Part shown: piece after piece, positions 2-14,318 of the stretch
How the letters are laid out: each line of letters starts with the position of its first letter
How positions within the stretch are numbered: position 1 is the first letter of the stretch
NCBI GenBank assembly: GCA_964386765.1
Contig: CAYLUC010000005.1
Coordinates: forward strand, 3,201 to 67,200
Origin: an uncultured Candidatus Poseidoniales archaeon
GTDB taxonomy: Archaea > Thermoplasmatota > Poseidoniia > Poseidoniales > Thalassarchaeaceae
DNA length: 64,000 bases
Reading direction: 5' to 3'
Program-made: the position numbers and the translations under genes
The notes under the pieces: generated by a model
What the model was told of the DNA's origin: nothing
Databases searched by the model: none
What the model saw: the letters and a program-made list of their open reading frames with translations, nothing else

Positions 2-166
2 TGGAGTCCAGCAGAAGAGGACGTCGATCCAAGCGAGGATAGGAAGGTGAGACAGGCGTGCTCATCCTGCGAGAAGTTGTTCGAACTCGAACTTCCCGAA
101 GGCGTCAACTCAGCCAAGACCGCGTGTCCACATTGCGGCTCTGTTGAGAGAGTTAGCATTGGGTGA
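2..166 (+). CDS. 3' end of a CDS (partial, runs off window) with a C-terminal zinc ribbon
   Basis: Hand translation from nt 2: WSPAEEDVDPSEDRKVRQACSSCEKLFELELPEGVNSAKTACPHCGSVERVSIG*; CxxC...CPHC pair; TGA at 164-166. Confidence 0.75.
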   Translation, partial: WSPAEEDVDPSEDRKVRQACSSCEKLFELELPEGVNSAKTACPHCGSVERVSIG

Positions 167-218
167 TGACTTCAACAACCACGATTACCATCAACTCAAG
201 CAGGGCAATACCCTTTAG

Positions 219-237
219 CGCACCTCTATGAGGTGCG
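219..237 (+). promoter_or_regulatory. C-TAN-G triloop hairpin (copy 1) covering the SD of the downstream gene
   Basis: CGCACCTC-TAT-GAGGTGCG, perfect 8-bp inverted repeat; SD GAGGTG (230-235) lies in the 3' arm; ATG at 241. Confidence 0.65.
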
Positions 238-240
238 AAC

Positions 241-3200
241 ATGAACAGTAGCAGCGTTAGGGTGATTCACCGTGCGCCGCATTCTCCCAATTCAGGCAGC
301 ATTTTGGTAGTGATGATACTCCTTTTGCCATTGTTCTCACCGATATCCAGCGTCAACGCGGAGGCTAGGATCGAAGCTCAGGACTTTCAGATACTGGATG
401 ACCTGTCCGATGTTCTGGGCCAACGGCAAGATGTGCTGGACTCCAACTCTGTTGGGCAGATAGCAGGGCCCGCATTGGATGCAGTCAGAGATGGCATTTC
501 CGACAGTGGACCCAGTCAACCACTATCCTCGATAGGGGAGTCATTAGTCGACTCCTCGATGACCGACACGTCCCCTCCCTCACCTGATCACCCCCTTCCG
601 TACAATGTTATTTTGGGGATAGACGACGGGGAGACAGCCCCAGTCGACAATGTATGGCAGACCCTTGTGAATATCACCGATTACGTCATCCTAACCGAAT
701 ACACTGACCTGAATGGAAACATAATCAGGAACACCGAGGTGGTGACATTCACTGCAAACTTCCTCTCCCTACTAAACTTCCAGACAGACCCCCTAAGCCA
801 CGCCGTGGACGTCGACAATGACGGGGACGATGACATTCAGGTCGGGCTTGGGATATCTCTGGGCCCAATAGGTCTGGACAATATCATCTCAGAGTCTGGG
901 ACACTGTGGATTCAGCCTGCGATTACATACAGGGTAGACGTCCTCGACTCTAGCACCACAGACCCAATGTGGGATGAAGTGGACACTCTGCAAGTATCGC
1001 TGATCAAGGCATTTGCATACTCTAGCCCAGACTCCATACTAGCCCTTGGCGATGGCGAGAGCTATATCTGGGTAGTCGACTCATCATTCAACTCAATGCC
1101 AAAAGAGTTCTCTCTGGAGGTCGGTATTGAGAGGGTGTTCTTCAACGCCAGTGCGGTGATGCAGGACCTTGTCCAGGCGATTTTGAATATATTCTCATCC
1201 AATTTCGATGGAACCGGAATGACCCTGATTGGAATCTCAGCCCCATACTCAATATCGGTCGACTCGAGTAATATGGACACTTGCCCAGATAGGTACACCC
1301 CCGACCAACTCCTCTTCCTACCTTCTGACGAGATAGACTGCGGGGTTTCCGTTGGTTTGGGCTATGCCCATTTTTCTCCACCGGGATCAGATCAAGTAAG
1401 GGATTTGTGGGAACTGGCATACATCGATCTAGACATTCACCCGAACAAGGACTCGATGGTGATTCCCGGGGACTTGGAGGTGATAATCAGGACAGACAGT
1501 ACACTACCAGCCGCCGGCGGCATAGAGGGAGACAGGAGCCTAACCACTGTGGAGTACTTCGCAGACAGAAGGGCCGATCTGCACATCCGCTTCTACGAGG
1601 ATCGCTCAAACACCCCCCCTGAGGACAACGGGGGTTCATCTGGCAATATCACTGATGGTAGAGGTTGGCTGAGGGGAATGCCCGAGGGCTCAATGTCTTC
1701 CGGTGAGATAACCAGGATTTTCAGGATGCTTGGCTCAGAAGATGAACCCGAATTGCCAGGGGGGAGGCCTAGTCGTCTCGGCATGATTCTTGGAATCAAG
1801 AATTTCTCACGTGATACCAGCCCCAACGAGGATGACCCTTCCCTTCCCGTGAACCCAGCACACCCCCCAATCAGCATGATTCTACTCAGGTCAGAACAGG
1901 CGATCGACTCTTTGGAATATGTGTCGTGGTTCCAGAGGGGCGGACAGTCGGATGACCATAGGAGAGTGAGCATCTCCTTGGACTCAATACCTCCCGCACT
2001 GGTTCTTTTCGGCTCATTCGATGTAGGCGGATCAGAGGATGATAACACAGACCTAGATGACTCGGATAACTTGGATTTCGTTTCAAGGATAATGGACTCG
2101 CTTATTCTGAACTTAGTCGATCTTTACTTGGATGTTGGCTCGACCCTAAATGACGTACCGTCCACCGTTGTAGATGCGATTACAGGTGGCGTTGGGTCAG
2201 GAGGGGACCTGCAGGGCAGGGAGTTCAATCTCCTAATGCATGACCACTGGGGAGCTCAGAGAGAGCCTATGATAATCTCCAGGATAGGGATGGAAATAGG
2301 ATCAAGCCAACATCCAGTATTGGTCGGCGATCACCTACTCCTAGCAAATGACAGATCGCTAACCCAAGTGGTCAGCAGGTCGGGAGCCCTAGTCGATCCG
2401 CTAGTCCCGATAGCAGCTAGCATAAGCTTCAGTGGACTTTCAGCATTCACTCTTGACGATGATGACGATCTCGAAGAGCTGACGGTACACATAAGCACAG
2501 TATCTTCCGAGACGTTCAATTTCATGTATCTCGAACATGATGAGGGGACAATCTCAAACTCTTCCCACCAGGCACTCTCAATTTCTGACATCCCGGATGA
2601 CATTGACATATTCCTAACTGCAGACGGCGCCGAGTACCTGGCATCCAGCTCCATCGAATCGATAACCTATACTGGAATAGATGCAGATCAGAGACAGGCA
2701 GTAAGGATATCCGACTTCCCAGACCAATTCTCCTCTGAATTCGGCAGCTCGTCTAGCTGGTCCTCGACCTCATCGATAGGGAGCATAGAGGCGCAGATCA
2801 CAAACTCCTCGACACCCGTAACAATGGGAGGGGACCATTTCCTGTTCCATCACGATCCCAATGACGGGACTTCGACGATATCATCTAGGATTTCAGGAAT
2901 TTCCGATGCCGGTTGGACTGCTCCTGCGGAGGAAGGCGCCTCGGGTTCCGCGGGGAGGGGCACGGCATCGATATCAGCTGCAGGCGACAGGTCCCTGAGC
3001 ATCAGTGTGGATCATGCACCAACCACCGATGAGGAGCAACTCACAGCAATTGCAGTAATCGATCCCCTGCCTTCCTCTGTATCCATAGAAATCCCCACTG
3101 GGGCGGAATCCGGTCCAACCCTCGACGTCCCCGAACTAAATACCTCGATGGGACTCTCCGGTCTAGCATTCTTCCTCGGAGGATTTGCCGACTTGGGCCG

Positions 3201-4623
3201 TTCAGTAAACTCCGTGCTCTCGGGCATTACCACTGACATCTCCACTGGCTCGGGCGGGAGCAGTGGTGACGAGGACTTCTCGTTCGGAATGCAGCTGGAG
3301 GCAGATTCCGCATTCGATCTAATCGTAGAATCGAGTCACGGCTCCGGCTCCCTGGTTTCCCCTCCTTGGGTACATGGAGTCTCCTTCAATGCGGCCTCCT
3401 CCGGCATATCAGATGGATTCCACCTCAGAACATGGCTTCCAGGGCTTCCCCCAGTGGTCGACATGTCAATATCAAGAAGCTCAGGAACGGACACCGAGGA
3501 CTGGGACATCAGACTGGGCCTAGAGGGGTGGGTCCCCGCTCATAGCGAGTTGATGATTTACGCCCAGGGAATTAACGGGCAGGACCTGCTTATGACACTC
3601 AATGGACTTGAGCCCGGGGTAGAGACCGGCCTCCTGGTCGAATCAATATTCGAGTTCACGACTGTTGCGGGAATCACAGAGGTATCTACGTCGACTCACT
3701 ACTCGATGACAGACAGACTTGATTGGGTCCACGCCCTTCTGATCAACAGAGAAGCCGGCAGCAGGACAGAGATAATGATCGACGAGATACCCGAGACCGT
3801 CGATTTCACTGCTAGTCTGGGAACTGCCGTCTCCATCGACATGACAGTGCCAGACATCTACCTCAGAGAGGGAGTAGGAATCGAGTCGATAATGATGCAA
3901 CAGATGCAGTGGCTGGACTCCTCCTGGTGGCCTGCGACAGTCTTCCTGACAGACCTTCCCGGCTCAATCAACCTCACCACGGAGCCGGACCCCAATTTCG
4001 ACATCACCAAGAGCCTAGCATTCCAAGGAATGCCCATACTGGACTTCAGTGCCTCAAGTGAGGGAATGTCACTCTACATAGAAGCATTCGGCAGGGCGAT
4101 AAACACACGAGGGGACACGATACTCCTAGCTGAGGGGATGACAGACAGCCTAGTAATTAGGCCAACTGAGGGATACGGGCTTGAGGTTAGATCAGGCGGA
4201 GATGGAGTTGACAGGATATACATCAGGTCCAGTAACGTACCAGCCACCCCCCCTGTTACCATGGAGGAGATGGAGGCCCTGGGGGAGGACCTCAAGAGCG
4301 CCACCATTCACGTGCACGAATTCGGGAGAGCCTACGGAGTCATCGAGATCTCCGATGTGCAGGGGGGGAGAATAATAGTTTCAGCACGCGCATCCGCAGA
4401 ACTAGGGGGCGAGACCTTTGACTTGAGGGGGGTCCTGCTGGACGCTCAAACCACATCGGGCATTCCAACAGCCACAACGCTGGGCGTCAACGGACTCGCC
4501 TCTGACCTTTCGCTACTCAACATGATTCCAGGCTTCGATGGACCAACTCATCACATAATGGTGGTAGAGCCGATCTCGTCCGGGATCCTCACCCTCGTAG
4601 CGACTTTCATTGGAGGTGACTGA
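241..4623 (+). CDS. Very large (1460 aa) acidic secreted/membrane-anchored protein of unknown function with a recurring phi-x-(D/S)-x-(L/I)P-x-x-phi-x-phi motif
   Basis: Long ORF; SD GAGGTG 5 nt before ATG; hydrophobic N-terminal signal/TM (ILVVMILLLPLFSP); DVDNDGDDD Ca-binding-like motif; hydrophobic C-terminus. No family recognised. Confidence 0.8.
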   Translation: MNSSSVRVIHRAPHSPNSGSILVVMILLLPLFSPISSVNAEARIEAQDFQILDDLSDVLGQRQDVLDSNSVGQIAGPALDAVRDGISDSGPSQPLSSIGESLVDSSMTDTSPPSPDHPLPYNVILGIDDGETAPVDNVWQTLVNITDYVILTEYTDLNGNIIRNTEVVTFTANFLSLLNFQTDPLSHAVDVDNDGDDDIQVGLGISLGPIGLDNIISESGTLWIQPAITYRVDVLDSSTTDPMWDEVDTLQVSLIKAFAYSSPDSILALGDGESYIWVVDSSFNSMPKEFSLEVGIERVFFNASAVMQDLVQAILNIFSSNFDGTGMTLIGISAPYSISVDSSNMDTCPDRYTPDQLLFLPSDEIDCGVSVGLGYAHFSPPGSDQVRDLWELAYIDLDIHPNKDSMVIPGDLEVIIRTDSTLPAAGGIEGDRSLTTVEYFADRRADLHIRFYEDRSNTPPEDNGGSSGNITDGRGWLRGMPEGSMSSGEITRIFRMLGSEDEPELPGGRPSRLGMILGIKNFSRDTSPNEDDPSLPVNPAHPPISMILLRSEQAIDSLEYVSWFQRGGQSDDHRRVSISLDSIPPALVLFGSFDVGGSEDDNTDLDDSDNLDFVSRIMDSLILNLVDLYLDVGSTLNDVPSTVVDAITGGVGSGGDLQGREFNLLMHDHWGAQREPMIISRIGMEIGSSQHPVLVGDHLLLANDRSLTQVVSRSGALVDPLVPIAASISFSGLSAFTLDDDDDLEELTVHISTVSSETFNFMYLEHDEGTISNSSHQALSISDIPDDIDIFLTADGAEYLASSSIESITYTGIDADQRQAVRISDFPDQFSSEFGSSSSWSSTSSIGSIEAQITNSSTPVTMGGDHFLFHHDPNDGTSTISSRISGISDAGWTAPAEEGASGSAGRGTASISAAGDRSLSISVDHAPTTDEEQLTAIAVIDPLPSSVSIEIPTGAESGPTLDVPELNTSMGLSGLAFFLGGFADLGRSVNSVLSGITTDISTGSGGSSGDEDFSFGMQLEADSAFDLIVESSHGSGSLVSPPWVHGVSFNAASSGISDGFHLRTWLPGLPPVVDMSISRSSGTDTEDWDIRLGLEGWVPAHSELMIYAQGINGQDLLMTLNGLEPGVETGLLVESIFEFTTVAGITEVSTSTHYSMTDRLDWVHALLINREAGSRTEIMIDEIPETVDFTASLGTAVSIDMTVPDIYLREGVGIESIMMQQMQWLDSSWWPATVFLTDLPGSINLTTEPDPNFDITKSLAFQGMPILDFSASSEGMSLYIEAFGRAINTRGDTILLAEGMTDSLVIRPTEGYGLEVRSGGDGVDRIYIRSSNVPATPPVTMEEMEALGEDLKSATIHVHEFGRAYGVIEISDVQGGRIIVSARASAELGGETFDLRGVLLDAQTTSGIPTATTLGVNGLASDLSLLNMIPGFDGPTHHIMVVEPISSGILTLVATFIGGD

Positions 4624-5187
4624 ATGGGACTTCTAGAGAGGATGAAAAAGAAGGAGGAAAGTGAGGAAACTCCAGAGGAAGAATTAGCCCACGAGGCATT
4701 GGAGTATTTCGAGGACAAACTAAGTGAAGTCTCCCCAACAAGGGTACTTTTCGCCTCAATCGCGGCACTGTTGGTCATTTCCGCATCCCTGATAGTAGTA
4801 GCTTGGGTAGTCCCATATGACAGAGTGTCTGTCGATGTGGTCTACAGGCAGGGGGCCGCGGGGCACGTCGTTCTAGCACAGATCAACAATGAAGGCAGCA
4901 GGTCGATAGAGGAAGTATCCCTTGACATCAGATTCCTTGATTCTGAGGGGATCGTCGAGATTGATCGCGCGCACTACGACGTCGACGTGATTACTGCTCA
5001 CACCTCGGTTGCCGGTGATGAACTAGAGCTCATTGTACCCGGGGTTTCTGTATGGGATAACTACACCATAGAGATAATTCTGAGCTATGATAACTATCGA
5101 AACGGGGTCTATATGAAGCAGCCCTACTCAGTCGGTGAGTGGACTATGGAGCTGTTCACAGTCAAATCCCCCCTCAAGATTCTCTGA
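4624..5187 (+). CDS. Single-TM membrane protein with a small beta-sandwich (Ig/CARDB-like) domain
   Basis: Acidic N-terminus, TM (VLFASIAALLVISASLIVVAWVV), then VLAQINNEGSRSIEEVSLDIRFLD; SD GGAGGTGA upstream; ATG abuts previous stop. Confidence 0.7.
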   Translation: MGLLERMKKKEESEETPEEELAHEALEYFEDKLSEVSPTRVLFASIAALLVISASLIVVAWVVPYDRVSVDVVYRQGAAGHVVLAQINNEGSRSIEEVSLDIRFLDSEGIVEIDRAHYDVDVITAHTSVAGDELELIVPGVSVWDNYTIEIILSYDNYRNGVYMKQPYSVGEWTMELFTVKSPLKIL

Positions 5188-5256
5188 ACAAAGATGACTG
5201 AAGTGATGTTCAGTTAACCCATATGCTCAAAATGGTCCTGACAGGGGGCGAGTTCG

Positions 5257-8200
5257 ATGAACCAGCGCGTGACCCTCATTGTTCTCGGAATACTAATGCT
5301 ATCGTACTCCCCGCCAATGGGGCATGACGATGGTATTCAGATGGGGGGCTCGGAAGAACTCTCCACGGGTTTTGAGAGAGTTGAAATCTCCCCGGATCCA
5401 AACAGCATCAGGAATTTGGCGGAGCCTACTGTTCACGAAGGCCTCGAGGATGTCAGACAAGTGATCGCTGACACAGTGATAGGAATCTACACCGAATCAG
5501 GACTCATTCCTAGGTTGTCAATGGACTCTGGCATTGCAACCCCCCGCTCGGACCTCGTAATTGCCCTGATAGACGGGGAAGTCGGACTTTGGGATGCAAG
5601 GGTCGAACTGTCAGAAATAGAGGGCATCGAAATAAGGTCAACAATCCCTCCCTCGGGATTCCTCATTCAGGGAACAAAGGAATCCCTGGAAGCACTGACC
5701 CTTGCTAATTCTGTCGTCGCTATCCACAATGTTCCAGCGGGCCTTCTGGTCCACGAGTCATTGATGCATTTCACTGCTGGGGAGCAGGTGCAAGTTGAGG
5801 TTATAGGGTGGAAGAATGAACAGTTGCTCAGACAAGACGACCCCGGCCTAGATCTGAAAGACACGCTTTACTCAGCAGCCTCGAGTTGGTTGGATGACAG
5901 TTGGTCACCTGAAACTGGAAGATACTGGGGCATGCTCAGCCTCGAGTCGCTGCCCTCACTTCTGGCACACCCCTCTGTAGCGTATGTCGCTCCACAGCCA
6001 GTATTGGTCCTCCACAATGACCAGGCTAGGTCAAACATGGGCGTAAACACGGTTGACAACGCATTCATCTCCGAGCTAAATGGGAGTGGACAGATAGTAG
6101 CAGTAGGTGACTCAGGTCTCGATGGGGACCACGGTGACTTCACTGGAAGGATTTCTGGACTCACTTCCGTAACTCCGGGCGACTCATCCACTGCAGATCC
6201 CAGTTCAGGGCATGGGACGCACGTTGCCTGTACCGTTCTTGGCTCTGGATTCAGGAGCAATGGGGGGTACCAGGGAATGGCTCCAGAGGCAAATTTGTAC
6301 TTCCAGGCCATGGAGGATGACGACTCAGGCGCACTATACAGCTACGGAATAAACTCAATGCTAAACTCGGCTTACAACGCTGGAGCTAGGATTCACACCA
6401 ACAGCTGGGGAGCTGGAAGTGGGTTTGGAAGCTACTCCACCCAATCAGAGGATGCCGATGATAGAACTTCCACATGGGATCAATATTGGTCATATGACGG
6501 CATGACCGTTCTGTTTGCTGCGGGCAATGAGAGGGACGATGGAGTCTCACCCCCTGGAACCGCAAAGAACGTGATTACGGTTGGTGGACACAAGAATAGG
6601 TACAGCGGAGCACCCGATGAAATGTACTACTGGAGCAGCAGGGGTCCAACGGATGATGGCAGGATCAAGCCAGATATTGTTGCACCTGGTGACTATGTCC
6701 GATCCTGCAAGGCGCAGGAGGCAACGGACGCCGATGGCTCATGGGACAACACATGGTATCTCGAATACAGTGGCACTTCAATGTCGACGCCCGCTGCTGC
6801 TGGGGCCTCAGCCCTAGTCAGAGAGTACCTAACTGAGGTAATTGGGAGGCAATCCCCACAAGGCGCTCTCGTGAAGGGGCTCCTCATTCTAGGGGCCAAA
6901 GACATGGGAACAAGGGACATTCCAAATGAAGACGAGGGTTGGGGCAGGCTGAACCTCGTTGATTCACTAATCGCCGATGGGGAAGTAGCAATTTTTGTCG
7001 ATGACAGATCTAGGATAAGGAGTGGACAGACAGTAGAATACAACTTCGATGTAACTTCCCCCGGACATGAGTTCAAGGCCGTTCTGACATGGTCCGACTA
7101 TCCCGGTTCTACAAGCTCTTCCACACAACTCAGGAACGACCTCGACCTTGAACTGGTGTCTCCGAGTGGGCAGTCATTCAAGGGTAATGTTTTCACAAAT
7201 GGACGTTCAGTAACTGGCGGCATCAAGGACTCAGTGAACAATGTGGAGGTAATAGCCCTAGATAGCGCCGATCAGGGCACATGGACTCTCAGAGTAAGGG
7301 ACTCTCAGCATGGAGGATCGAGGACATGGCAGCCATTCTCTCTCGCAGTTAGGGGCTTCAATGTAAACGACCTAAACCCGGACCCAACGTTCGTAGCAGA
7401 TTCTTTCGATGTTTCTACACCAATACCACAGGTGGGGGAGCAAGTAGAGATTAGCGTCTCAGTGAAGAATCTGGGAGCTGGAACGGTTTCCGATTTGCAG
7501 GTACTGTCAAGGGTCAATAGCGCTCTTCTAGGAGAGGAGCTAGTAACCCTGTCCCCCGGTGAGACCGAGGAGATATCTTGGAATTGGACGCCTAGTGAAG
7601 AGGGGGAAGCCGCATTCGAGTTCTTCATAGACCCGAATAATCTGATTGAGGAGCTTTCCGAGTCGAACAATTACCTTGGTGAGCTGGTTATTGTCAGTGC
7701 ACCAGGAGTCAGGGTGACCGCAGAATCAGAACTAATCACACTGTCTGATCCCACCTCCACCACAACAACTTGGGATCTCACACTAACCAACACAGCTCTA
7801 TTCGAGACGAACGCCTCAATCAGCGCCTCATCTCCCATTAGAATTCAAGATGGTACCGAATTCGGATGGTTCCAGTCATTTACATCGAACACATTCAATC
7901 TAATGCCAACAGAATCAATTTCGGTGGGCATGACAATGGTTCATCCATCACCGCCACCACCTGGAACGTATTCCATGACGGTCTCGGGATACGACATCGA
8001 GAATGACATCGAGTCTGAATTGGCCCTAATTTTCGATGTTCCAGTGCTGGGCGATGCCGATATACAGATACTAAACGAACAGATCCTAGTCAGTCCATTG
8101 GTGCCTACTAGTACACAGATTTCCGTAATCAACGGAGGAAATGGGGCGCAATCATACGATGTTGAATTGGTCTCTCCAGCAGGATGGCATTTGGGGCTAG

Positions 8201-9750
8201 ATGACATCGGGGCATTCGAGGGGTCTTCTCATGGTTCCACGGGAACCCTCCAGAAGGACTCCAACAAGATTGTCGACATCACAATCAATCCACCAGGTGC
8301 AATGATTCCCGCTGGCTCCACTTACGAGGCGGCGATAATTGTTCATTCTCGTGTTGGTTCGGATTCATGGACTCAGGACATCGTCCTAGTGGTTGACTCT
8401 GTAGATGAGGTTTCTACGACACCCATCTCAGGAGGCACCGAGAACCAGGTATCGCCCGACGCACTGTTGGAGATTCCAATTTCATTCAATAATATGGGGA
8501 ACCGTGATCTGGAATTACAGCCATACCTGATGACAATCCCCGGGGGATGGTCAGTTTCAGGCGCACTTTCCACAATTACCGTTCCAGCCGGACAAACTGA
8601 GGAATGGACCTTGTCTATCCAAGGGAATGGAATCGCGGTCAGCGGCCTGCTGGAAATGAGATTCGCCACAGAGGACGGATTTAGAATTGATTGGAATCGT
8701 ACCCTTGACGTCCTCTCAGCAGCATCTCCAAGAATATCGTTCCACCAGATAGACCTTCCAGATGGAACGTCTTCTGAAACCATACTGGGTGTCCCCGCTC
8801 ATCCAGTGGGCCCTCCTGGGTTCGATTTGACTTGGATGGTTTGGAATGAGGGTTCGGGCACATGGAGGCCAAGTACCTACCTCGAGGTGCCGAATGACGA
8901 GTGGTCCTCCACATGTACTGGACCTACCTCGCTCTCACCAGGGCAATCGTCCACAGTATCATGTCTAGTTACAATACCCATCTCAGAACCGGCAGGCTCC
9001 GAGCCTGCAATCACTCTCGTGATGTCAGGAGAAGGAATCGAGATCAGAGATACGCAGTCACTTCTCGTCGAATCGGCACCAAGGATACAATGGTCTCTCA
9101 ACTCTGAGCCACTGGCCCACGAGGGATACTCAGCAACCTTCAGGCTGGATGTCACCAACACTGGAAACACCGACATATCTCACACACTCCAAGTCGATGC
9201 ACCCGCTCAATGGAACGCCCATGTCGTGGATGGCGTGAGAATAGTCCTGGCTCCTGGCGAATCGAGGAGCGTGATTGTAGACTTCACCCCAAACAACGGA
9301 AACGACGGTACGATATCCCTTACTCTGGCGGAAGCCGAGGGCCTCGAAGGAGGAAGCATCGATATTGCGGTAGATGTCAAGCCTTCAGTGGGAGGGCAGG
9401 ATGGCCTGGAAAGCCTGTTCCCAATAGCTATTCTAGCTCTATTGGTAGCTTTGGCAATAGGAATAGGAACATTCGTCTACGTCAGAACCGATGGGAAACC
9501 CTCCTCGATCCTCAATAACGAGAAGGTGAATAAGGCGGTTCAGAAGATAATTCCCAAATCCGAAGAAAAGGTGACCAGTGGCATTCCATGCTGGCTCTGC
9601 AGCATTGACGTTACAGTGGGGGAGGCATGGGCCTGCTCCTCATGCGGTGCAAGGTATCACAAGGCCGGGCAGGTTTCGGGTTGCGACATCATGGATTCAG
9701 GCAGATGCATGCATTGTGATGCCGAATCCGAAGACCTCGTCGAAGCCTGA
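5257..9750 (+). CDS. S8 subtilisin-family serine protease, secreted and membrane-anchored, with CARDB/Ig-like repeats and a C-terminal C4HC3 zinc finger
   Basis: Catalytic motifs VAVGDSG (Asp), HGTHVA (His), FAAGN (oxyanion Asn), GTSMSTP (Ser); CARDB-like segment (ISVSVKNLGAG...IDPNNLIEELSESNN); TM near the C-terminus followed by Cys/His finger. Confidence 0.95.
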   Translation: MNQRVTLIVLGILMLSYSPPMGHDDGIQMGGSEELSTGFERVEISPDPNSIRNLAEPTVHEGLEDVRQVIADTVIGIYTESGLIPRLSMDSGIATPRSDLVIALIDGEVGLWDARVELSEIEGIEIRSTIPPSGFLIQGTKESLEALTLANSVVAIHNVPAGLLVHESLMHFTAGEQVQVEVIGWKNEQLLRQDDPGLDLKDTLYSAASSWLDDSWSPETGRYWGMLSLESLPSLLAHPSVAYVAPQPVLVLHNDQARSNMGVNTVDNAFISELNGSGQIVAVGDSGLDGDHGDFTGRISGLTSVTPGDSSTADPSSGHGTHVACTVLGSGFRSNGGYQGMAPEANLYFQAMEDDDSGALYSYGINSMLNSAYNAGARIHTNSWGAGSGFGSYSTQSEDADDRTSTWDQYWSYDGMTVLFAAGNERDDGVSPPGTAKNVITVGGHKNRYSGAPDEMYYWSSRGPTDDGRIKPDIVAPGDYVRSCKAQEATDADGSWDNTWYLEYSGTSMSTPAAAGASALVREYLTEVIGRQSPQGALVKGLLILGAKDMGTRDIPNEDEGWGRLNLVDSLIADGEVAIFVDDRSRIRSGQTVEYNFDVTSPGHEFKAVLTWSDYPGSTSSSTQLRNDLDLELVSPSGQSFKGNVFTNGRSVTGGIKDSVNNVEVIALDSADQGTWTLRVRDSQHGGSRTWQPFSLAVRGFNVNDLNPDPTFVADSFDVSTPIPQVGEQVEISVSVKNLGAGTVSDLQVLSRVNSALLGEELVTLSPGETEEISWNWTPSEEGEAAFEFFIDPNNLIEELSESNNYLGELVIVSAPGVRVTAESELITLSDPTSTTTTWDLTLTNTALFETNASISASSPIRIQDGTEFGWFQSFTSNTFNLMPTESISVGMTMVHPSPPPPGTYSMTVSGYDIENDIESELALIFDVPVLGDADIQILNEQILVSPLVPTSTQISVINGGNGAQSYDVELVSPAGWHLGLDDIGAFEGSSHGSTGTLQKDSNKIVDITINPPGAMIPAGSTYEAAIIVHSRVGSDSWTQDIVLVVDSVDEVSTTPISGGTENQVSPDALLEIPISFNNMGNRDLELQPYLMTIPGGWSVSGALSTITVPAGQTEEWTLSIQGNGIAVSGLLEMRFATEDGFRIDWNRTLDVLSAASPRISFHQIDLPDGTSSETILGVPAHPVGPPGFDLTWMVWNEGSGTWRPSTYLEVPNDEWSSTCTGPTSLSPGQSSTVSCLVTIPISEPAGSEPAITLVMSGEGIEIRDTQSLLVESAPRIQWSLNSEPLAHEGYSATFRLDVTNTGNTDISHTLQVDAPAQWNAHVVDGVRIVLAPGESRSVIVDFTPNNGNDGTISLTLAEAEGLEGGSIDIAVDVKPSVGGQDGLESLFPIAILALLVALAIGIGTFVYVRTDGKPSSILNNEKVNKAVQKIIPKSEEKVTSGIPCWLCSIDVTVGEAWACSSCGARYHKAGQVSGCDIMDSGRCMHCDAESEDLVEA

Positions 9751-9753
9751 AAA

Positions 9754-9775
9754 GCGCGACCCTAAGGGGTCGCGT
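9754..9775 (+). promoter_or_regulatory. C-TAN-G triloop hairpin (copy 2, one bulged G), followed by a weaker TAG-loop hairpin at 9784-9797
   Basis: GCGCGACCC-TAA-GGG(G)TCGCGT starts 3 nt after the S8 stop; then GCCCT-TAG-AGGG(G)C overlapping the likely SD of the next gene. Confidence 0.55.
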
Positions 9776-9803
9776 GGTGCGAAGCCCTTAGAGGGGCGGT
9801 CTA

Positions 9804-12509
9804 GTGCGAAATGCGATGAAGCCAAACAATTCAGCAAGTCTGATAGTGGCGCTACTCGTCCTGAGCCTCTCATCACCACTGGTTTCAGCGGATGTAGACA
9901 TCTCGCTTTCTGCAAATCCCATGACGGCCGAGGCAACAACAGACGATGCCGCTGAATACGACATCGTGATACAGAATTCTGGAGACGACGATGCCTTGGT
10001 CTCCCTAAGCACACAGCAGGGAAATGACTGCAATGGATTCACGTCAACATTGGAATCAACAACCGTTACAGTAGACTCTGGCTCATCTGAAACCGTCAAA
10101 CTAACGGTTTCTGTCTCAGACCAGGCCAACGGAGAATGCGAAACCACCGTCAATGCACAGGGACAGGTATCTGGCGGCATACCGGGAACAGGCTCGAGTG
10201 ACGATGTCACTGTAACTACGACCGCTGGAGACGGAGGGGGTCTTTACTCCGTCAAACTGTCTACTGACGATCCACTCACTAGGAATTACGACGGAGAGGA
10301 TGATGAGGTAACTTGGGAAGTGGACGTCGAGAACAACGGCGAACAACAGGCGAATGTGCAGTTGGAGATGACTTCAGACAGTGATTGCGAGTCCGATGAC
10401 CTGTCAGCCACTGTGGATCCGGCCATCCTCCAGCTGGAGCCAGAAGATGAGGAGTCAGTCACTGTAACAGTCGATATGCCCAATGGGGCTGAGACAGAGG
10501 CAGGCTCCCATTGCTTCATCCTGAGGGCAACCGTAACTAACGACCCCAATGCCGCGGATCAGGCCGAGGATAACCTGACATTGAGCCTAAACGTCCCGGA
10601 GATAAAGGAATGCGAGGCATCACTCCAATTCAGCTCCCACAGCCTCGATCCAGGGGAGTCAGCATCAAACTCATTCGACGTTGAGAACATAGGGAACACG
10701 GAATGGACAGTTACAGCAAACGCACAAGCCCAGGACGGGCATGACATTTCTGGATGGGTAAACTTCGACAGCCCAAAGAGCAAGATGCTCGCGGAGCCCG
10801 GAAGTTCCGATGACTCCCATACATTCACCTTCGACGTAACGCCGGACGACTCTCTAGAAGCAGGGACTCAGATTGCAATAAATATCCAAGGAAGGGCGGG
10901 AACAGCAGTCGGCTGCGAGAAGGTACTCACAGTTACTGTCGGACAAGAGTTCGGTGCATCGATGACACTGAGCAAATCCACCCTCTCGAATGTTGACCCA
11001 GGCTCCTCAGGCTCCCTCTCAATTCAGATTACCAACGAGGGCAATGGACAGGATACCATGGCAATAGGCGCAAACGGACTCCCCCCTGGATGGCAGGTTT
11101 CTCTTTCCCAGTCTTCCGTCACCCTCGGGAGCGCCCAGTCCTCTAACAACAAGCAGACAATATCAGCGGATGTGCTGGTTCCCAATGACGCTAGTGCTGA
11201 GAGTGATGTTGTAATCACTTTCACAGTCGGTAGAGGAGGGGGAACCGAGCCTTATGCCACTAGGGATCTCACAGTCTCAGTTGCAGCCCGACATTCTGTA
11301 ACCACATCATTGGTTTCCGACCAACAGACAGGCCGTTCAGGGCAAATTGTTCAATTCCCCATAGAGGTGACAAACTCAGGAAACATTCAGGACACGTTCA
11401 GATTGCAGGCATGTGATCCCGGTGACATGACTGGTTGTAGCAGTCCGATGTGGGAATCGTCCTTCTCGGATACTAATGGTAACTCAATCACGCAGGTGGT
11501 CCTTGATCCGGGTCAGAAACAAACCGTCTATCTTGATGTCCTGGTGGAGGGGGAGGAAGATGCAGATTCCGCCAAGGTCCTAGCAAGAGTTGCTATTTAT
11601 GGAACCTCGGAAGTAGACGAGCACACAGTAACAGTCGTTGTCTCAAACTACAACTACGGGATGGCAATATCACCTCAGAATCCAGGGGAGGTACCAAGCC
11701 AGATAGACGTGATCCTTCCCCCGGGTGGCACGCTTTCCACCTTCTTCTGGGTAGAGAATACAGGGGACTACCCAGCTGGGGATACTGCCGTGATTACCAT
11801 CTCTGGAATGGACTCGTCAGTCATCAGGCAAATGTTTGTGGAAGGGGTGCAGATTGATGGCACGATTCAGATCGCCAAGGGAGAGAGAGTACTTGTCGAG
11901 GTACAAATGGAAGTCCTCGAGGGAGTCGCGAATGGGGTCTCTGGGATAATCAAGGTAAACGCCGCCTCCGAGAGGAACGCGGCCCAGACTACCACAGTGG
12001 ATGTAATAATCCAAGTGATGACCATTCACGATCTTAGATTCACATTGGAGAGTTCGTCCGAACAGACGGCCAACTATCCAGAGAAACTCTACTTCTCGCT
12101 TTTCGTAACCAACCACGGAAACATCGTTGAGGAGGTCGAGATACTGTCAAGCGACTCTCTAAGGGGTTGGACGGTTGACGTGGTGGAGGACGAGTTCGAT
12201 CTTCAGCCCGGAGAAACGAGGGAGATTGAGGTCAGAGTAACACCTCCCTCAGAAATGATTGATGATGATACCTACAGGTTCACCATTACAGTTCAGCCAA
12301 AGGGAATACCAGTGGCAGGCCAACCAATCGAACTGAAGGTCACATCCAAGGTTTCGAACCCCTTCCTAAACTTGTCAGATGAGGTCGAAGAGGCACTCGT
12401 CTATGGCCTGACTGGGTTGGGGACATTGCTAGTGGTAGTCCTCTTCTTCCGCTCGAGGGCAGAAAACAGAATGATACGAAAGGCCCTCGAAGAAGAGGAC
12501 GAATCCTAG
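9804..12509 (+). CDS. Secreted Ig-like repeat protein (COG1470/NEW3-CARDB-like) with C-terminal TM anchor
   Basis: Signal peptide; about 7 modules with (V/I)xNxG[N/D]xxD and LxPGE motifs; paired Cys in several modules; TM LVYGLTGLGTLLVVVLFF. Start GTG 9804 or ATG 9816. Confidence 0.85.
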   Translation: MRNAMKPNNSASLIVALLVLSLSSPLVSADVDISLSANPMTAEATTDDAAEYDIVIQNSGDDDALVSLSTQQGNDCNGFTSTLESTTVTVDSGSSETVKLTVSVSDQANGECETTVNAQGQVSGGIPGTGSSDDVTVTTTAGDGGGLYSVKLSTDDPLTRNYDGEDDEVTWEVDVENNGEQQANVQLEMTSDSDCESDDLSATVDPAILQLEPEDEESVTVTVDMPNGAETEAGSHCFILRATVTNDPNAADQAEDNLTLSLNVPEIKECEASLQFSSHSLDPGESASNSFDVENIGNTEWTVTANAQAQDGHDISGWVNFDSPKSKMLAEPGSSDDSHTFTFDVTPDDSLEAGTQIAINIQGRAGTAVGCEKVLTVTVGQEFGASMTLSKSTLSNVDPGSSGSLSIQITNEGNGQDTMAIGANGLPPGWQVSLSQSSVTLGSAQSSNNKQTISADVLVPNDASAESDVVITFTVGRGGGTEPYATRDLTVSVAARHSVTTSLVSDQQTGRSGQIVQFPIEVTNSGNIQDTFRLQACDPGDMTGCSSPMWESSFSDTNGNSITQVVLDPGQKQTVYLDVLVEGEEDADSAKVLARVAIYGTSEVDEHTVTVVVSNYNYGMAISPQNPGEVPSQIDVILPPGGTLSTFFWVENTGDYPAGDTAVITISGMDSSVIRQMFVEGVQIDGTIQIAKGERVLVEVQMEVLEGVANGVSGIIKVNAASERNAAQTTTVDVIIQVMTIHDLRFTLESSSEQTANYPEKLYFSLFVTNHGNIVEEVEILSSDSLRGWTVDVVEDEFDLQPGETREIEVRVTPPSEMIDDDTYRFTITVQPKGIPVAGQPIELKVTSKVSNPFLNLSDEVEEALVYGLTGLGTLLVVVLFFRSRAENRMIRKALEEEDES

Positions 12510-12540
12510 CCGCCATCCTGAGTTCTTACCGGATAGGCTT

Positions 12541-12564
12541 ATTGCCCAATTTCAGGTGGGCAAT
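12541..12564. promoter_or_regulatory. Perfect 8-bp inverted repeat upstream of the nuo operon (candidate operator or hairpin)
   Basis: ATTGCCCA-N8-TGGGCAAT, overlapping an AT-rich CTTATTG stretch that could be the TATA box. Confidence 0.45.
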
Positions 12565-12565
12565 G

Positions 12566-12590
12566 CTGTCGGTCCCTACGGGACCGTCAG
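12566..12590 (+). promoter_or_regulatory. C-TAN-G triloop hairpin (copy 3) in the nuoA leader
   Basis: CTG-T-CGGTCCC-TAC-GGGACCG-T-CAG; core 12570-12586 is a perfect 7-bp stem; the outer arm overlaps the SD AGGTG before ATG 12600. Confidence 0.65.
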
Positions 12591-12599
12591 GTGTGCATA

Positions 12600-13046
12600 A
12601 TGTCGACAGTCCCGGAGGACTATCTAGCAGTGGCTGTAATGGCCCTAGTGGGCATCGGATTCCCTGTAATGAGCTTCATCGCATCGGGCTTCCTTAGGCC
12701 CAGAAAGACTGGTAACGACCCAAAGAAATTGAGCTCATGGCTTCTGCCAGGTTACGAGAGTGACCAGTCACTCTACATCCGTAGAGACAGCACATATGAG
12801 TGCGGAGCGGACCCTGTAGGGGACGCCCACATCAACTTCCACTTCCAATACTACTGGTATGCGATAATCTTCCTCGTCTTCGACATCGCATTCATGTTCA
12901 TGGCATTCGGGGGTGTCGTGGCGATACAAGAAGGAGTGGAATTGAGCGGGATCTATAGCGCACTCGCAACACTCACTGCATTCATCGTCCTGATGGGGCT
13001 AGGGGTATGGCATGTATTCCGAAAGAGAGGAAGAATATACATCTGA
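12600..13046 (+). CDS. nuoA: Complex I-like oxidoreductase subunit A
   Basis: YECG loop, YYWYAIIFLVFDI motif, 3 TMs; ATG 12600 preferred over GTG 12591 (SD AGGTG). Confidence 0.95.
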   Translation: MSTVPEDYLAVAVMALVGIGFPVMSFIASGFLRPRKTGNDPKKLSSWLLPGYESDQSLYIRRDSTYECGADPVGDAHINFHFQYYWYAIIFLVFDIAFMFMAFGGVVAIQEGVELSGIYSALATLTAFIVLMGLGVWHVFRKRGRIYI

Positions 13047-13055
13047 GGTGATTAA

Positions 13056-13649
13056 ATGACAGACGACCAGAATTATGCAGTTTTCAACAGCAGGATGTTG
13101 GTTGATACCGTCGGGGATGTTACGGACGAGGCCCTGAAGGCAAGTCGAATAAAGGACATCATTGGAGTTATCGCTGGCAGAATTTTCAACTGGGGACAGA
13201 GAAAGTCGCTCTTCCCCCTCCACCTTGGAATCAAGTGCTGTGCCTTGGAGATGGCCGCTGCGGGAGCTAGCAGATTCGATGCTGAGAGGTTCGGCGTCTT
13301 CTTCCGCTCCAGCCCCCGTCAGTGCGATGTACTATTGGTAAACGGCCCGATTAGCAAGAAGTTCGCTGACCCGATAGTTAGGCTATGGGAGCAGATGCCA
13401 GAACCAAAGTGGTGCATAGCAATGGGTGAGTGCGCTATCTCAGGAGGGCCATACTTCCAGTCATACAACATTCTGGAAGGCGTGGACACTGTCATACCAG
13501 TCGATGTGTACATCCCCGGATGCCCGCCAAGGCCGGAGGCTCTCATCGATGGTTTCGACAAGTTACGCCAGAAAATAATCCGAATAGGCGCTATGCCAAG
13601 TAGTGACAGACCAGAAACTCAGAGGCCACTGATTGCGGGAGACTTGTGA
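13056..13649 (+). CDS. nuoB: Complex I-like subunit B (N2 Fe-S cluster)
   Basis: CCALEM, SPRQCD, MGECAISGG and DVYIPGCPPRPE motifs. Confidence 0.97.
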   Translation: MTDDQNYAVFNSRMLVDTVGDVTDEALKASRIKDIIGVIAGRIFNWGQRKSLFPLHLGIKCCALEMAAAGASRFDAERFGVFFRSSPRQCDVLLVNGPISKKFADPIVRLWEQMPEPKWCIAMGECAISGGPYFQSYNILEGVDTVIPVDVYIPGCPPRPEALIDGFDKLRQKIIRIGAMPSSDRPETQRPLIAGDL

Positions 13650-13658
13650 GGTGAATCA

Positions 13659-14318
13659 ATGGGCAGAGTAGTTCCGACTTCTACACAGAAGGCATCTGCC
13701 GAGAAGCTATGCAAGGCAGTCTCGAAGATGAAGGGGGTCGAAGCAGAACCAGTAGAGAGAACAAGCGGAACGAGTCCCCGATGGACAGTTTCCGTAGTAT
13801 GTGAGGCAGACAATTGGAGGGCGCTCGCAGAGAAGCTAAGGGAGACTCACTCCGTCGACTACTGCTCAATGATTACTGGAATTCATTGGCCAGAGGGGCC
13901 GGACGAGAAGAAATGGGAAGTTGTCTACCACTTCCTAAGGACAGGTGTGAAGAACCCACCTTCATCGGACGGAGTTCTGCAGCCGATAATTACCGATCCA
14001 AACGCGGTCAAGGGCAATGACGTCCCTCTTGAGATAGAAGTCAGCATCAGGCTTCCAGACACCAGAACGCCATCTGTAGCAAGCATCCAAGATATCTGGG
14101 TTGGGGCTGACTGGAATGAGAAGGAGACATGGGACTTGGTTGGCATAGATTTCGATGGGCATGCTGGGATGAGGAGGGTTTTGCAGCCTCATGAAACACC
14201 AACTGGGTACCACCCTCTGCAAAGGCATCACAATTTGAGGTATCACGGGTTCGAGGAGATGTACGACGACGCTCAAGGATTCGGACGTAAGCCGGATGAC
14301 ATTGGAAAGGTAAAGTGA
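13659..14318 (+). CDS. nuoC: Complex I-like subunit C
   Basis: PSVASIQDIWVGADWNEKETWDLVGIDFDGH...HPL motif; position in operon. Confidence 0.93.
   Translation: MGRVVPTSTQKASAEKLCKAVSKMKGVEAEPVERTSGTSPRWTVSVVCEADNWRALAEKLRETHSVDYCSMITGIHWPEGPDEKKWEVVYHFLRTGVKNPPSSDGVLQPIITDPNAVKGNDVPLEIEVSIRLPDTRTPSVASIQDIWVGADWNEKETWDLVGIDFDGHAGMRRVLQPHETPTGYHPLQRHHNLRYHGFEEMYDDAQGFGRKPDDIGKVK

Follow-up and report, generated by a model that had tools for sequence, protein, structure and literature searches.

A gene at positions 5257–9750 (forward strand) of a 64,000-nucleotide (nt) stretch of DNA from an uncultured Candidatus Poseidoniales archaeon (GenBank assembly GCA_964386765.1, contig CAYLUC010000005.1, positions 3,201 to 67,200), which we call the window, encodes a 1497-residue protein in which a surface protease of the S8 (subtilase) family is predicted to be joined, through one transmembrane helix, to a zinc-finger tail in the cytoplasm. 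The reading that we favour, with modest confidence, is that this tail is a divergent finger of the Prok-RING_1 type and serves as a non-catalytic docking handle, one of several interchangeable modules found at the ends of such proteins. An earlier note on this DNA, on the region 9415–9750, had described a transmembrane helix followed by a C4HC3 pattern of cysteines and histidine at nt 9589–9717, and had proposed an interaction or E3-like module. Translation of the open reading frame (ORF) reproduces the pattern and its coordinates exactly. A general interaction or localisation module is still the best reading, while the E3-like part of the proposal, with turnover through SAMP/Cdc48, is unsupported by the results given below.

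From the ORF list, its translation, Pfam matches and the orthologs, the gene product is predicted to be an active, Sec-exported S8 subtilase anchored as a type-I membrane protein on the surface of a Marine Group II (MGII) archaeon (Poseidoniales, Thalassarchaeaceae). It begins with a signal-peptide-like N-terminus, MNQRVTLIVLGILMLSYSPPM (5257–5319), in which a basic n-region precedes a hydrophobic h-region, a type of start that is conserved across orthologs. The Peptidase_S8 catalytic domain occupies residues 276–563 (6082–6945; Pfam PF00082, E = 2.5e-43) and has the Asp-His-Ser order and oxyanion Asn expected of the family: D285, H322, S508 and N424 are intact, and are invariant in an alignment of 72 full-length orthologs that we took from genome contigs. 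Between the catalytic domain and the membrane, Pfam recognises a P_proprotein domain (P-domain), two CARDB domains and a NEW3/Ig-like region. The single C-terminal transmembrane helix, LFPIAILALLVALAIGIGTFVYV (residues 1387–1409, nt 9415–9483), has a mean Kyte-Doolittle hydropathy of 2.46 across orthologs. A lysine-rich, poorly conserved linker of 35 residues follows (1410–1444, nt 9484–9588; 21–73 residues in the orthologs), and the finger with its 10-residue C-terminal strand spans 9574–9747, directly before the stop codon at 9748–9750. PMC6864105 reports one to four extracellular S8 subtilisins in every MGII metagenome-assembled genome (MAG) analysed, and mentions no tail.

The orientation of the tail can be judged from the residues that flank the helix. 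Across 79 orthologs, lysine and arginine together average 0.65 in the 15 residues before the helix against 2.5 in the 15 residues after it, and 67 of the 79 obey the positive-inside rule. Given the N-terminal export signal, the single helix and this charge bias, the tail is predicted to be cytoplasmic, as the earlier note had supposed. The cysteines of the protein are unevenly spread, with four to eight in the ∼1390-residue ectodomain of the orthologs against always seven in the last 60 residues.

The tail reads C1445-x2-C1448-x11-C1460-x2-C1463-x4-H1468-x7-C1476-x7-C1484-x2-C1487 (nt 9589–9717). All eight of these residues are invariant in the 72 full-length orthologs, as are G1464, A1465, R1466 and Y1467, the GARY that precedes the histidine, despite whole-protein identities that fall to 37–46%. 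In the same alignment mean identity is 0.37 over the block 1401–1450, which contains the linker, and 0.65 over the block containing the finger. The last cysteine lies 10 residues from the C-terminus in every complete ortholog ORF, these ORFs spanning 1467–1610 residues. A second histidine, that of C-x-H-C, is not kept in Poseidoniaceae, and thus the ligand set is C4HC3. The H-x7-C spacing that had been remarked upon as atypical is real, and the gap is x7, x6 or x4 within the family, while C-x7-C-x2-C is constant. Judged by these alignments, the finger is conserved far beyond chance and is under strong selection. Its charge is not conserved, given that the finger of the window protein carries nine acidic and three basic residues (net ∼−6) and the Poseidoniaceae versions are approximately neutral. 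On the same figures we rejected both nucleic-acid binding and lipid binding of the C1/FYVE kind as functions of the finger.

Structure prediction suggests that the finger adopts a RING-like fold, a treble clef that is probably cross-braced and would have two zinc sites. AlphaFold2 (AF2) model 1, of the window-type finger (11-sequence alignment), has a predicted local distance difference test (pLDDT) score of 90.5, and model 2, of the Poseidoniaceae type with the x4 loop (32-sequence alignment), one of 83.4. Model 1 runs from a strand through a knuckle, a hairpin with the second knuckle, a short helix and a third knuckle to a C-terminal strand, and model 2 has the same order of elements with shorter strands. 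This order agrees with the account of binuclear RING-like treble clefs in PMC4678705, namely knuckle, hairpin, short helix, squiggle and C-terminal strand. When the two models were compared with the PDB using Foldseek, RING and U-box domains ranked first for both (TRIM37, RING1B/BMI1/PCGF5, Rad18, Bre1 and Prp19), the best RING matches having probabilities of 0.89–0.97 and TMq (TM-score normalised to the query) of 0.53–0.67; for model 2 the ranges were 0.94–0.97 and 0.57–0.67, at a root mean square deviation of 2.5–3.2 Å. The predicted layout is shared with eukaryotic RING/U-box E3s such as RING1B-BMI1, Rad18, TRIM37 and Prp19, from which the finger differs in its ligand order (C4HC3, as against C3HC4 in those proteins), and sequence E-values to them are not significant. 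By analogy with this fold, the finger would bind two zinc ions, one through C1445/C1448 with H1468/C1476 and the other through C1460/C1463 with C1484/C1487.

Sequence profiles also relate the finger, as a divergent form, to prokaryotic RING finger family 1 (Prok-RING_1, PF14446), and this is the assignment that we favour. Direct scans of the tail against Pfam and NCBIfam gave no match at or near threshold, and the precomputed Pfam lists of 13 orthologs contain no tail domain. Below the gathering threshold of 29.1 bits, all 16 of the diverse tails scanned match Prok-RING_1, at 10–23 bits (best 23.1; window tail 10.4–12.8). As a reference for profile-profile comparison with hhalign we used 29 Thermoplasmatota Prok-RING_1 domains that score above the threshold, as such domains do in 25 of the 401 Thermoplasmatota genomes searched. 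The protease-tail family aligns to this reference with a probability of 94.8% and an E-value of 5e-8 over 45 columns, from the first CxxC to the last, with a 6-residue gap at the His-to-Cys loop. As a control, the protease-tail family aligned to the zinc-ribbon family DZR (PF12773) gave 81.8%, 1e-5 and 26 columns; Prok-RING_1 against DZR gave 84.4%, 7e-6 and 42 columns. Because the link to Prok-RING_1 is better than this cysteine-rich background and covers the whole domain, we regard the two as homologous, by a modest margin.

The likeness extends to several features of the sequences and their setting. The true Thermoplasmatota Prok-RING_1 domains follow the pattern C-x2-C-x12-C-x(1-2)-C-G-A-x-[YF]-H-x2-C-x6-C-x2-C, and share with the protease finger the C4HC3 order, the spacing C-x2-C-x(11-12)-C-x(1-2)-C and the G-A-x-[YF]-H motif. 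Most of them lie 30–50 residues after a transmembrane helix and 4–7 residues from the C-terminus of exported surface proteins, a position that the protease finger, 35 residues after its helix, also has; one example is a 774-residue protein with a signal peptide, a PKD/CARDB-like ectodomain, a transmembrane helix and the RING. This bears out the earlier note, which had prokaryotic RING family 1 domains placed behind transmembrane helices, and PMC4029887 likewise states that the family is 'characterized by' a transmembrane domain. Unlike Prok-RING_1, with its H-x2-C-x6-C-x2-C, the protease finger has H-x(4,6,7)-C-x7-C-x2-C; R1466 is invariant in it and variable in Prok-RING_1; and it is limited to a single protease family in a single order. 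Because the His-to-Cys loop is x4–x7 instead of x2, we describe the finger as a divergent variant, in which this loop would have grown. Apart from the proteases, two other Thermoplasmatota (L119/G055 and L123/G079) encode ∼1600-residue coiled-coil-like helical-repeat proteins that have no transmembrane helix and end in a small beta domain followed by Prok-RING_1, with scores of up to 60 bits.

Other family assignments were considered for the tail. The earlier note had called the finger RING-variant/PHD-like, and membership of neither family is supported. For PHD (PF00628) no match is listed at E ≤ 10, the spacing is H-x4-7-C and not H-x2-C, and there is no conserved Trp before C1484. RINGv/RING-CH (PF12906) has the spacing C-x2-C-x(10-45)-C-x-C-x7-H-x2-C, which the tail, with C-x2-C as its second pair and x4 to the histidine, does not fit; there is no Pfam match, and the sole trace is a sequence match to the K3 RINGv domain in the PDB (E = 0.097–4.1). 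PDB sequence searches were marginal overall, the best match being the C1 domain of ARHGEF2/GEF-H1 (9h1o; E = 0.0017), aligned over CxxC-x12-CxxC-x4-H. A C1 domain is a cross-braced binuclear finger, as is predicted here, yet it differs in having an N-terminal His ligand and H-x2-C-x7-C, the protease finger having no conserved upstream histidine. The net charge of the window finger makes C1-like lipid binding unlikely.

The alternative that survives best, improbable as we consider it, is that the eight ligands make up a pair of zinc ribbons, consecutive or nested, in the manner of pairs of rubredoxin-like knuckles and with no cross-brace; the domain would then resemble the DZR or zinc-ribbon tails that many archaeal membrane proteins carry, and would have a similar docking or structural role. 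Consistent with this, each of the 16 tails matches DZR at a score under its threshold (24.7 bits at best), Foldseek also returns rubredoxins (TMq ∼0.5), the half C-x2-C-x11-C-x2-C would suit a short zinc ribbon, and other membrane proteins of the same genome end in plain zinc ribbons. However, the DZR matches, like the hhalign control, span one ribbon unit only (26 columns), while the invariant x4-His after an aromatic residue, in GARYH, is a signature of Prok-RING_1, PHD and C1 domains, and RING/U-box structures outrank rubredoxins for both models. The rubredoxin matches themselves can be explained by the fold, since according to a passage of PMC4678705 the second zinc site of RING folds is rubredoxin-like. 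Membership of DZR itself was rejected, given that the best score is below the 27.3-bit cut-off, that the second half (H/C/CxxC) is not a ribbon, and that hhalign covers one ribbon.

The finger is widespread within Poseidoniales. By word-indexed search, 13 full-length orthologs were recovered, 1490–1504 residues long. Searching 1.84 billion representative proteins with a profile of the finger returned only 25 matches at E ≤ 1e-3; every match read (three multi-stretch ones were left unread) was C-terminal, and those inspected appear to be pieces of this protease. When one genome per prokaryotic species was scanned, 276 finger stretches were confirmed, and the best 80 all come from MAGs of Poseidoniales, under the names Thalassarchaeum/Thalassarchaeaceae, Poseidoniaceae or Marine Group II. 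In a class-level survey of 251 genomes, the finger was present in 71 of 95 Thalassarchaeaceae and 120 of 130 Poseidoniaceae genomes, and was found in none of the 24 genomes searched from lineages f3 and f51, which make up the rest of the class. It occurs as a single copy per genome, one fragmented assembly excepted, and a search for paralogous fingers elsewhere in the genome of the window found none.

The genomes that lack the finger show what can stand in its place. Two Thalassarchaeaceae genera have no finger (0/14 and 0/5 genomes), and keep the protease ortholog at 52–54% identity up to about residue 1420, together with the whole syntenic gene cluster described below, including its upstream zinc ribbon. 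Their proteases end in a transmembrane helix, an acidic linker and a cysteine-free segment, LERFSEYPGWLWDxxxxEWVPDPD. In a tree of the ectodomain, three proteins with this swapped tail group as a single clade (support 1.0) inside the finger-bearing proteins (parent node 0.999), and under midpoint rooting the finger-bearing Poseidoniaceae lie on the opposite side of the root. From these two placements it follows that the finger is ancestral and was replaced once in this clade. Two Poseidoniaceae genera also have orthologs, at 39–41% identity, in which the finger is replaced by long, acidic, Q/P/S-rich, non-zinc tails; in one of these two genera the tail ends in ..EWxDSxDxDDPWA. The finger-less orthologs of Poseidoniaceae genus g18 (L170 and L175) have a long low-complexity tail rich in Q, P, S and T with a shared end, ..EW[AP]DSxDxDDPWA.

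The swapped-in segment is not peculiar to these proteases. A tryptophan-rich motif, E/Q-x-PGWLWD-x4-5-E-W-V-P/A-D, was found in 49 of 50 and 80 of 80 genomes of the two families (129 of 130 Poseidoniales) and in none of the 20 genomes searched from f3 and f51; no Pfam family matches it. In the genome of the window it ends a 1421-residue beta-helix surface protein (C9:17242-21507) and a 392-residue type-I protein, in each case after a transmembrane helix and an acidic linker. Zinc ribbons form a further kind of tail, with ∼10 membrane proteins of this 1.33-Mb genome (contigs C1, C2, C3, C9 and C13) ending in cytoplasmic ones.

Taking these observations together, we infer the following arrangement. 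The single C-terminal stop-transfer helix would hold the exported protease at the cell surface, leaving the last ∼55 residues in the cytoplasm, where they may fold around two zinc ions at the end of a flexible linker of 21–73 residues. Most likely the finger then serves as a protein-protein docking handle, by which the protease outside would be tied, positioned or clustered through a partner inside. It would be one of the interchangeable tail modules carried by large type-I surface proteins of Poseidoniales, the zinc ribbons and the PGWLWD..W.PD motif being others.

A somewhat less probable alternative than the double ribbon is that the zinc domain serves the making or the removal of the protein, either as a stopper that fixes the C-terminus inside during export of the 1390-residue ectodomain, or as a grip by which a cytoplasmic AAA+ protease would extract and degrade it. 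The position of the finger at the extreme C-terminus, behind the sole anchor, would suit such a role, as would the many large type-I proteins of the genome that bear folded or motif-bearing tails. Against this, positive-inside charges suffice to fix topology, and the genera with long, low-complexity tails that lack a fold retain the ortholog. Furthermore, invariant surface residues that are not ligands (R1466, Y1467 and the constant 10-residue end) point to a specific contact, and tightly folded zinc domains would be expected to make poor entry sites for an unfoldase.

The protease gene stands in a block of five envelope genes directly 5' of nuoA-B-C (window positions 2–14318), all of the five on the forward strand, with order and spacing kept in both Poseidoniales families; this synteny holds down to 28–40% protein identity. 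The first gene is partial in the window (2–166) and was correctly said to end in a zinc ribbon: it is the end of a 795-residue PKD-like surface protein that starts upstream of the window (contig C5:979-3366) and has a single transmembrane helix, a very acidic linker of 130 residues and a C-terminal CxxC-x22-CxxC ribbon (Zn_ribbon_8, 24.7 bits, below threshold). This ribbon is kept in the syntenic clusters of other genera, including genera whose protease has no finger. The second gene (241–4623) encodes a 1460-residue exported protein with no Pfam match, found in the same position in 72 loci. The third (4624–5187), immediately upstream of the protease, encodes a 187-residue type-II membrane protein with an acidic cytoplasmic N-terminus, a transmembrane helix and a small ectodomain, and is conserved in 73 loci. 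After the protease comes a 901-residue multi-Ig surface protein with a C-terminal transmembrane helix (9804–12509; Pfam Ig-like/NEW3/FixG_C; conserved in 78 loci), and then nuoA-B-C. The adjacent 187-residue protein was considered as a partner of the finger, through its cytoplasmic N-terminus, and was dropped, given that it shows no co-variation with the type of protease tail.

This neighbourhood bears on the least probable of the alternatives, namely that the finger is an E3-like module that recruits SAMP-type conjugation to the membrane, tagging the protease or cytoplasmic targets for turnover or signalling. The RING-like predicted fold, the homology to Prok-RING_1 and a ThiF-type E1-like gene in the genome (such as most archaea carry) speak for it. 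We consider it very unlikely: the three E2 families searched, UQ_con, Prok-E2_A and Prok-E2_B, have no match at E ≤ 1 in this 93.8%-complete genome, the strictly conserved neighbours include no Ubl, E1 or JAB gene and no ubiquitin-related domain recognised by Pfam, cysteine-free tails replace the finger in at least three lineages, and archaeal SAMPylation, to our knowledge, requires neither E2 nor E3. In part of the Prok-RING_1 family, neighbouring Ubl, E1, E2 or JAB genes have been reported; the neighbours of the protease finger, in contrast, are surface proteins and nuoABC. Nor are prokaryotic RINGs uniformly tied to ubiquitin, some acting outside ubiquitin-related functions according to a passage of PMC4029887 that cites Burroughs et al. 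2011. Since the finger can be replaced by the tail of other surface proteins, no E2 was found and the neighbours are not of ubiquitin type, we prefer docking to E3 activity.

It is important to note that several of our results weigh against the docking handle or against the family on which it is built. The N-terminus of the 187-residue protein, a candidate for the internal binding partner, fails to vary with the tail. The tail swaps could reflect a loss or change of function instead of equivalence between modules. The Foldseek E-values, at only 0.08–0.5, do not reach significance for a domain this short, and the rubredoxin scores come close to those of the RING matches. Between cysteine-rich families that are unrelated, hhalign already gives a background of ∼1e-5, so that the margin in favour of Prok-RING_1 is only about two orders of magnitude.

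Two groups of known proteins invite comparison with the protease. PA-TM-RING proteins (RNF13) and ZNRF3/RNF43 have the same layout, with an ectodomain (a protease-associated or ligand-binding part), one transmembrane helix and a cytoplasmic RING-type finger. Their ectodomains are not homologous to that of the protease and there is no ubiquitin system here, so that the likeness is architectural only. The membrane-anchored cell-envelope subtilases of archaea and bacteria are similar in being large S8 enzymes with a P-domain and Ig-like spacers that are held at the surface. Those described are anchored by a bare transmembrane helix, a signal of the sortase or PGF type, or contacts with the S-layer, unlike the finger-tailed protease, and we know of none reported with a cytoplasmic zinc finger.

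MGII archaea rank with the most abundant heterotrophs of the surface ocean that remain uncultured, and the breakdown of protein there is believed to be driven by their surface proteases. In these organisms a near-universal, single-copy protease is, by our analysis, coupled across the membrane to a conserved RING-like finger, and the exchange of this finger for motifs of other surface proteins points to machinery inside the cell by which the envelope of these never-cultivated cells is held or organised. The finger also enlarges the set of prokaryotic RING fingers by a well-populated subfamily that the domain databases do not see, from an organism in which no E2 was found, and so bears on the roles of the RING fold before ubiquitin ligation. 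It is doubtful, though worth stating, that the Poseidoniales tail repertoire of RING-like finger, zinc ribbons and PGWLWD..W.PD connects the envelope to a single organiser common to all these tails within the cell, for instance a cortical scaffold or a sorting machine. If it did, the arrangement would parallel, in archaea, the signals in the cytoplasmic tails of eukaryotic transmembrane receptors and transmembrane RING proteins, and the finger would represent an ancient, non-ubiquitin use of the RING fold as a connector between envelope and cytoplasm. Because the finger is a small, soluble domain that can readily be expressed, its zinc content, structure and partners can be tested directly.

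Some other details of proteins with tails of these kinds emerged in the course of the analysis. The tryptophan-rich motif is encoded, besides C9:17242-21507, on contig C25 of the genome of the window (ORF ending at ∼11890) and at the loci L160-L162, L168 and L169. One of the proteins that end in a zinc ribbon is a second S8-like protease of ∼1610 residues, on contig C2, with a proline-rich linker. The closest S8 paralog (C9:52221-57038; 1605 residues; catalytic domains 43% identical) has a transmembrane helix, a long linker and a different tryptophan-rich end, PEGWTIDQWVAYGHLWWEQNRP.

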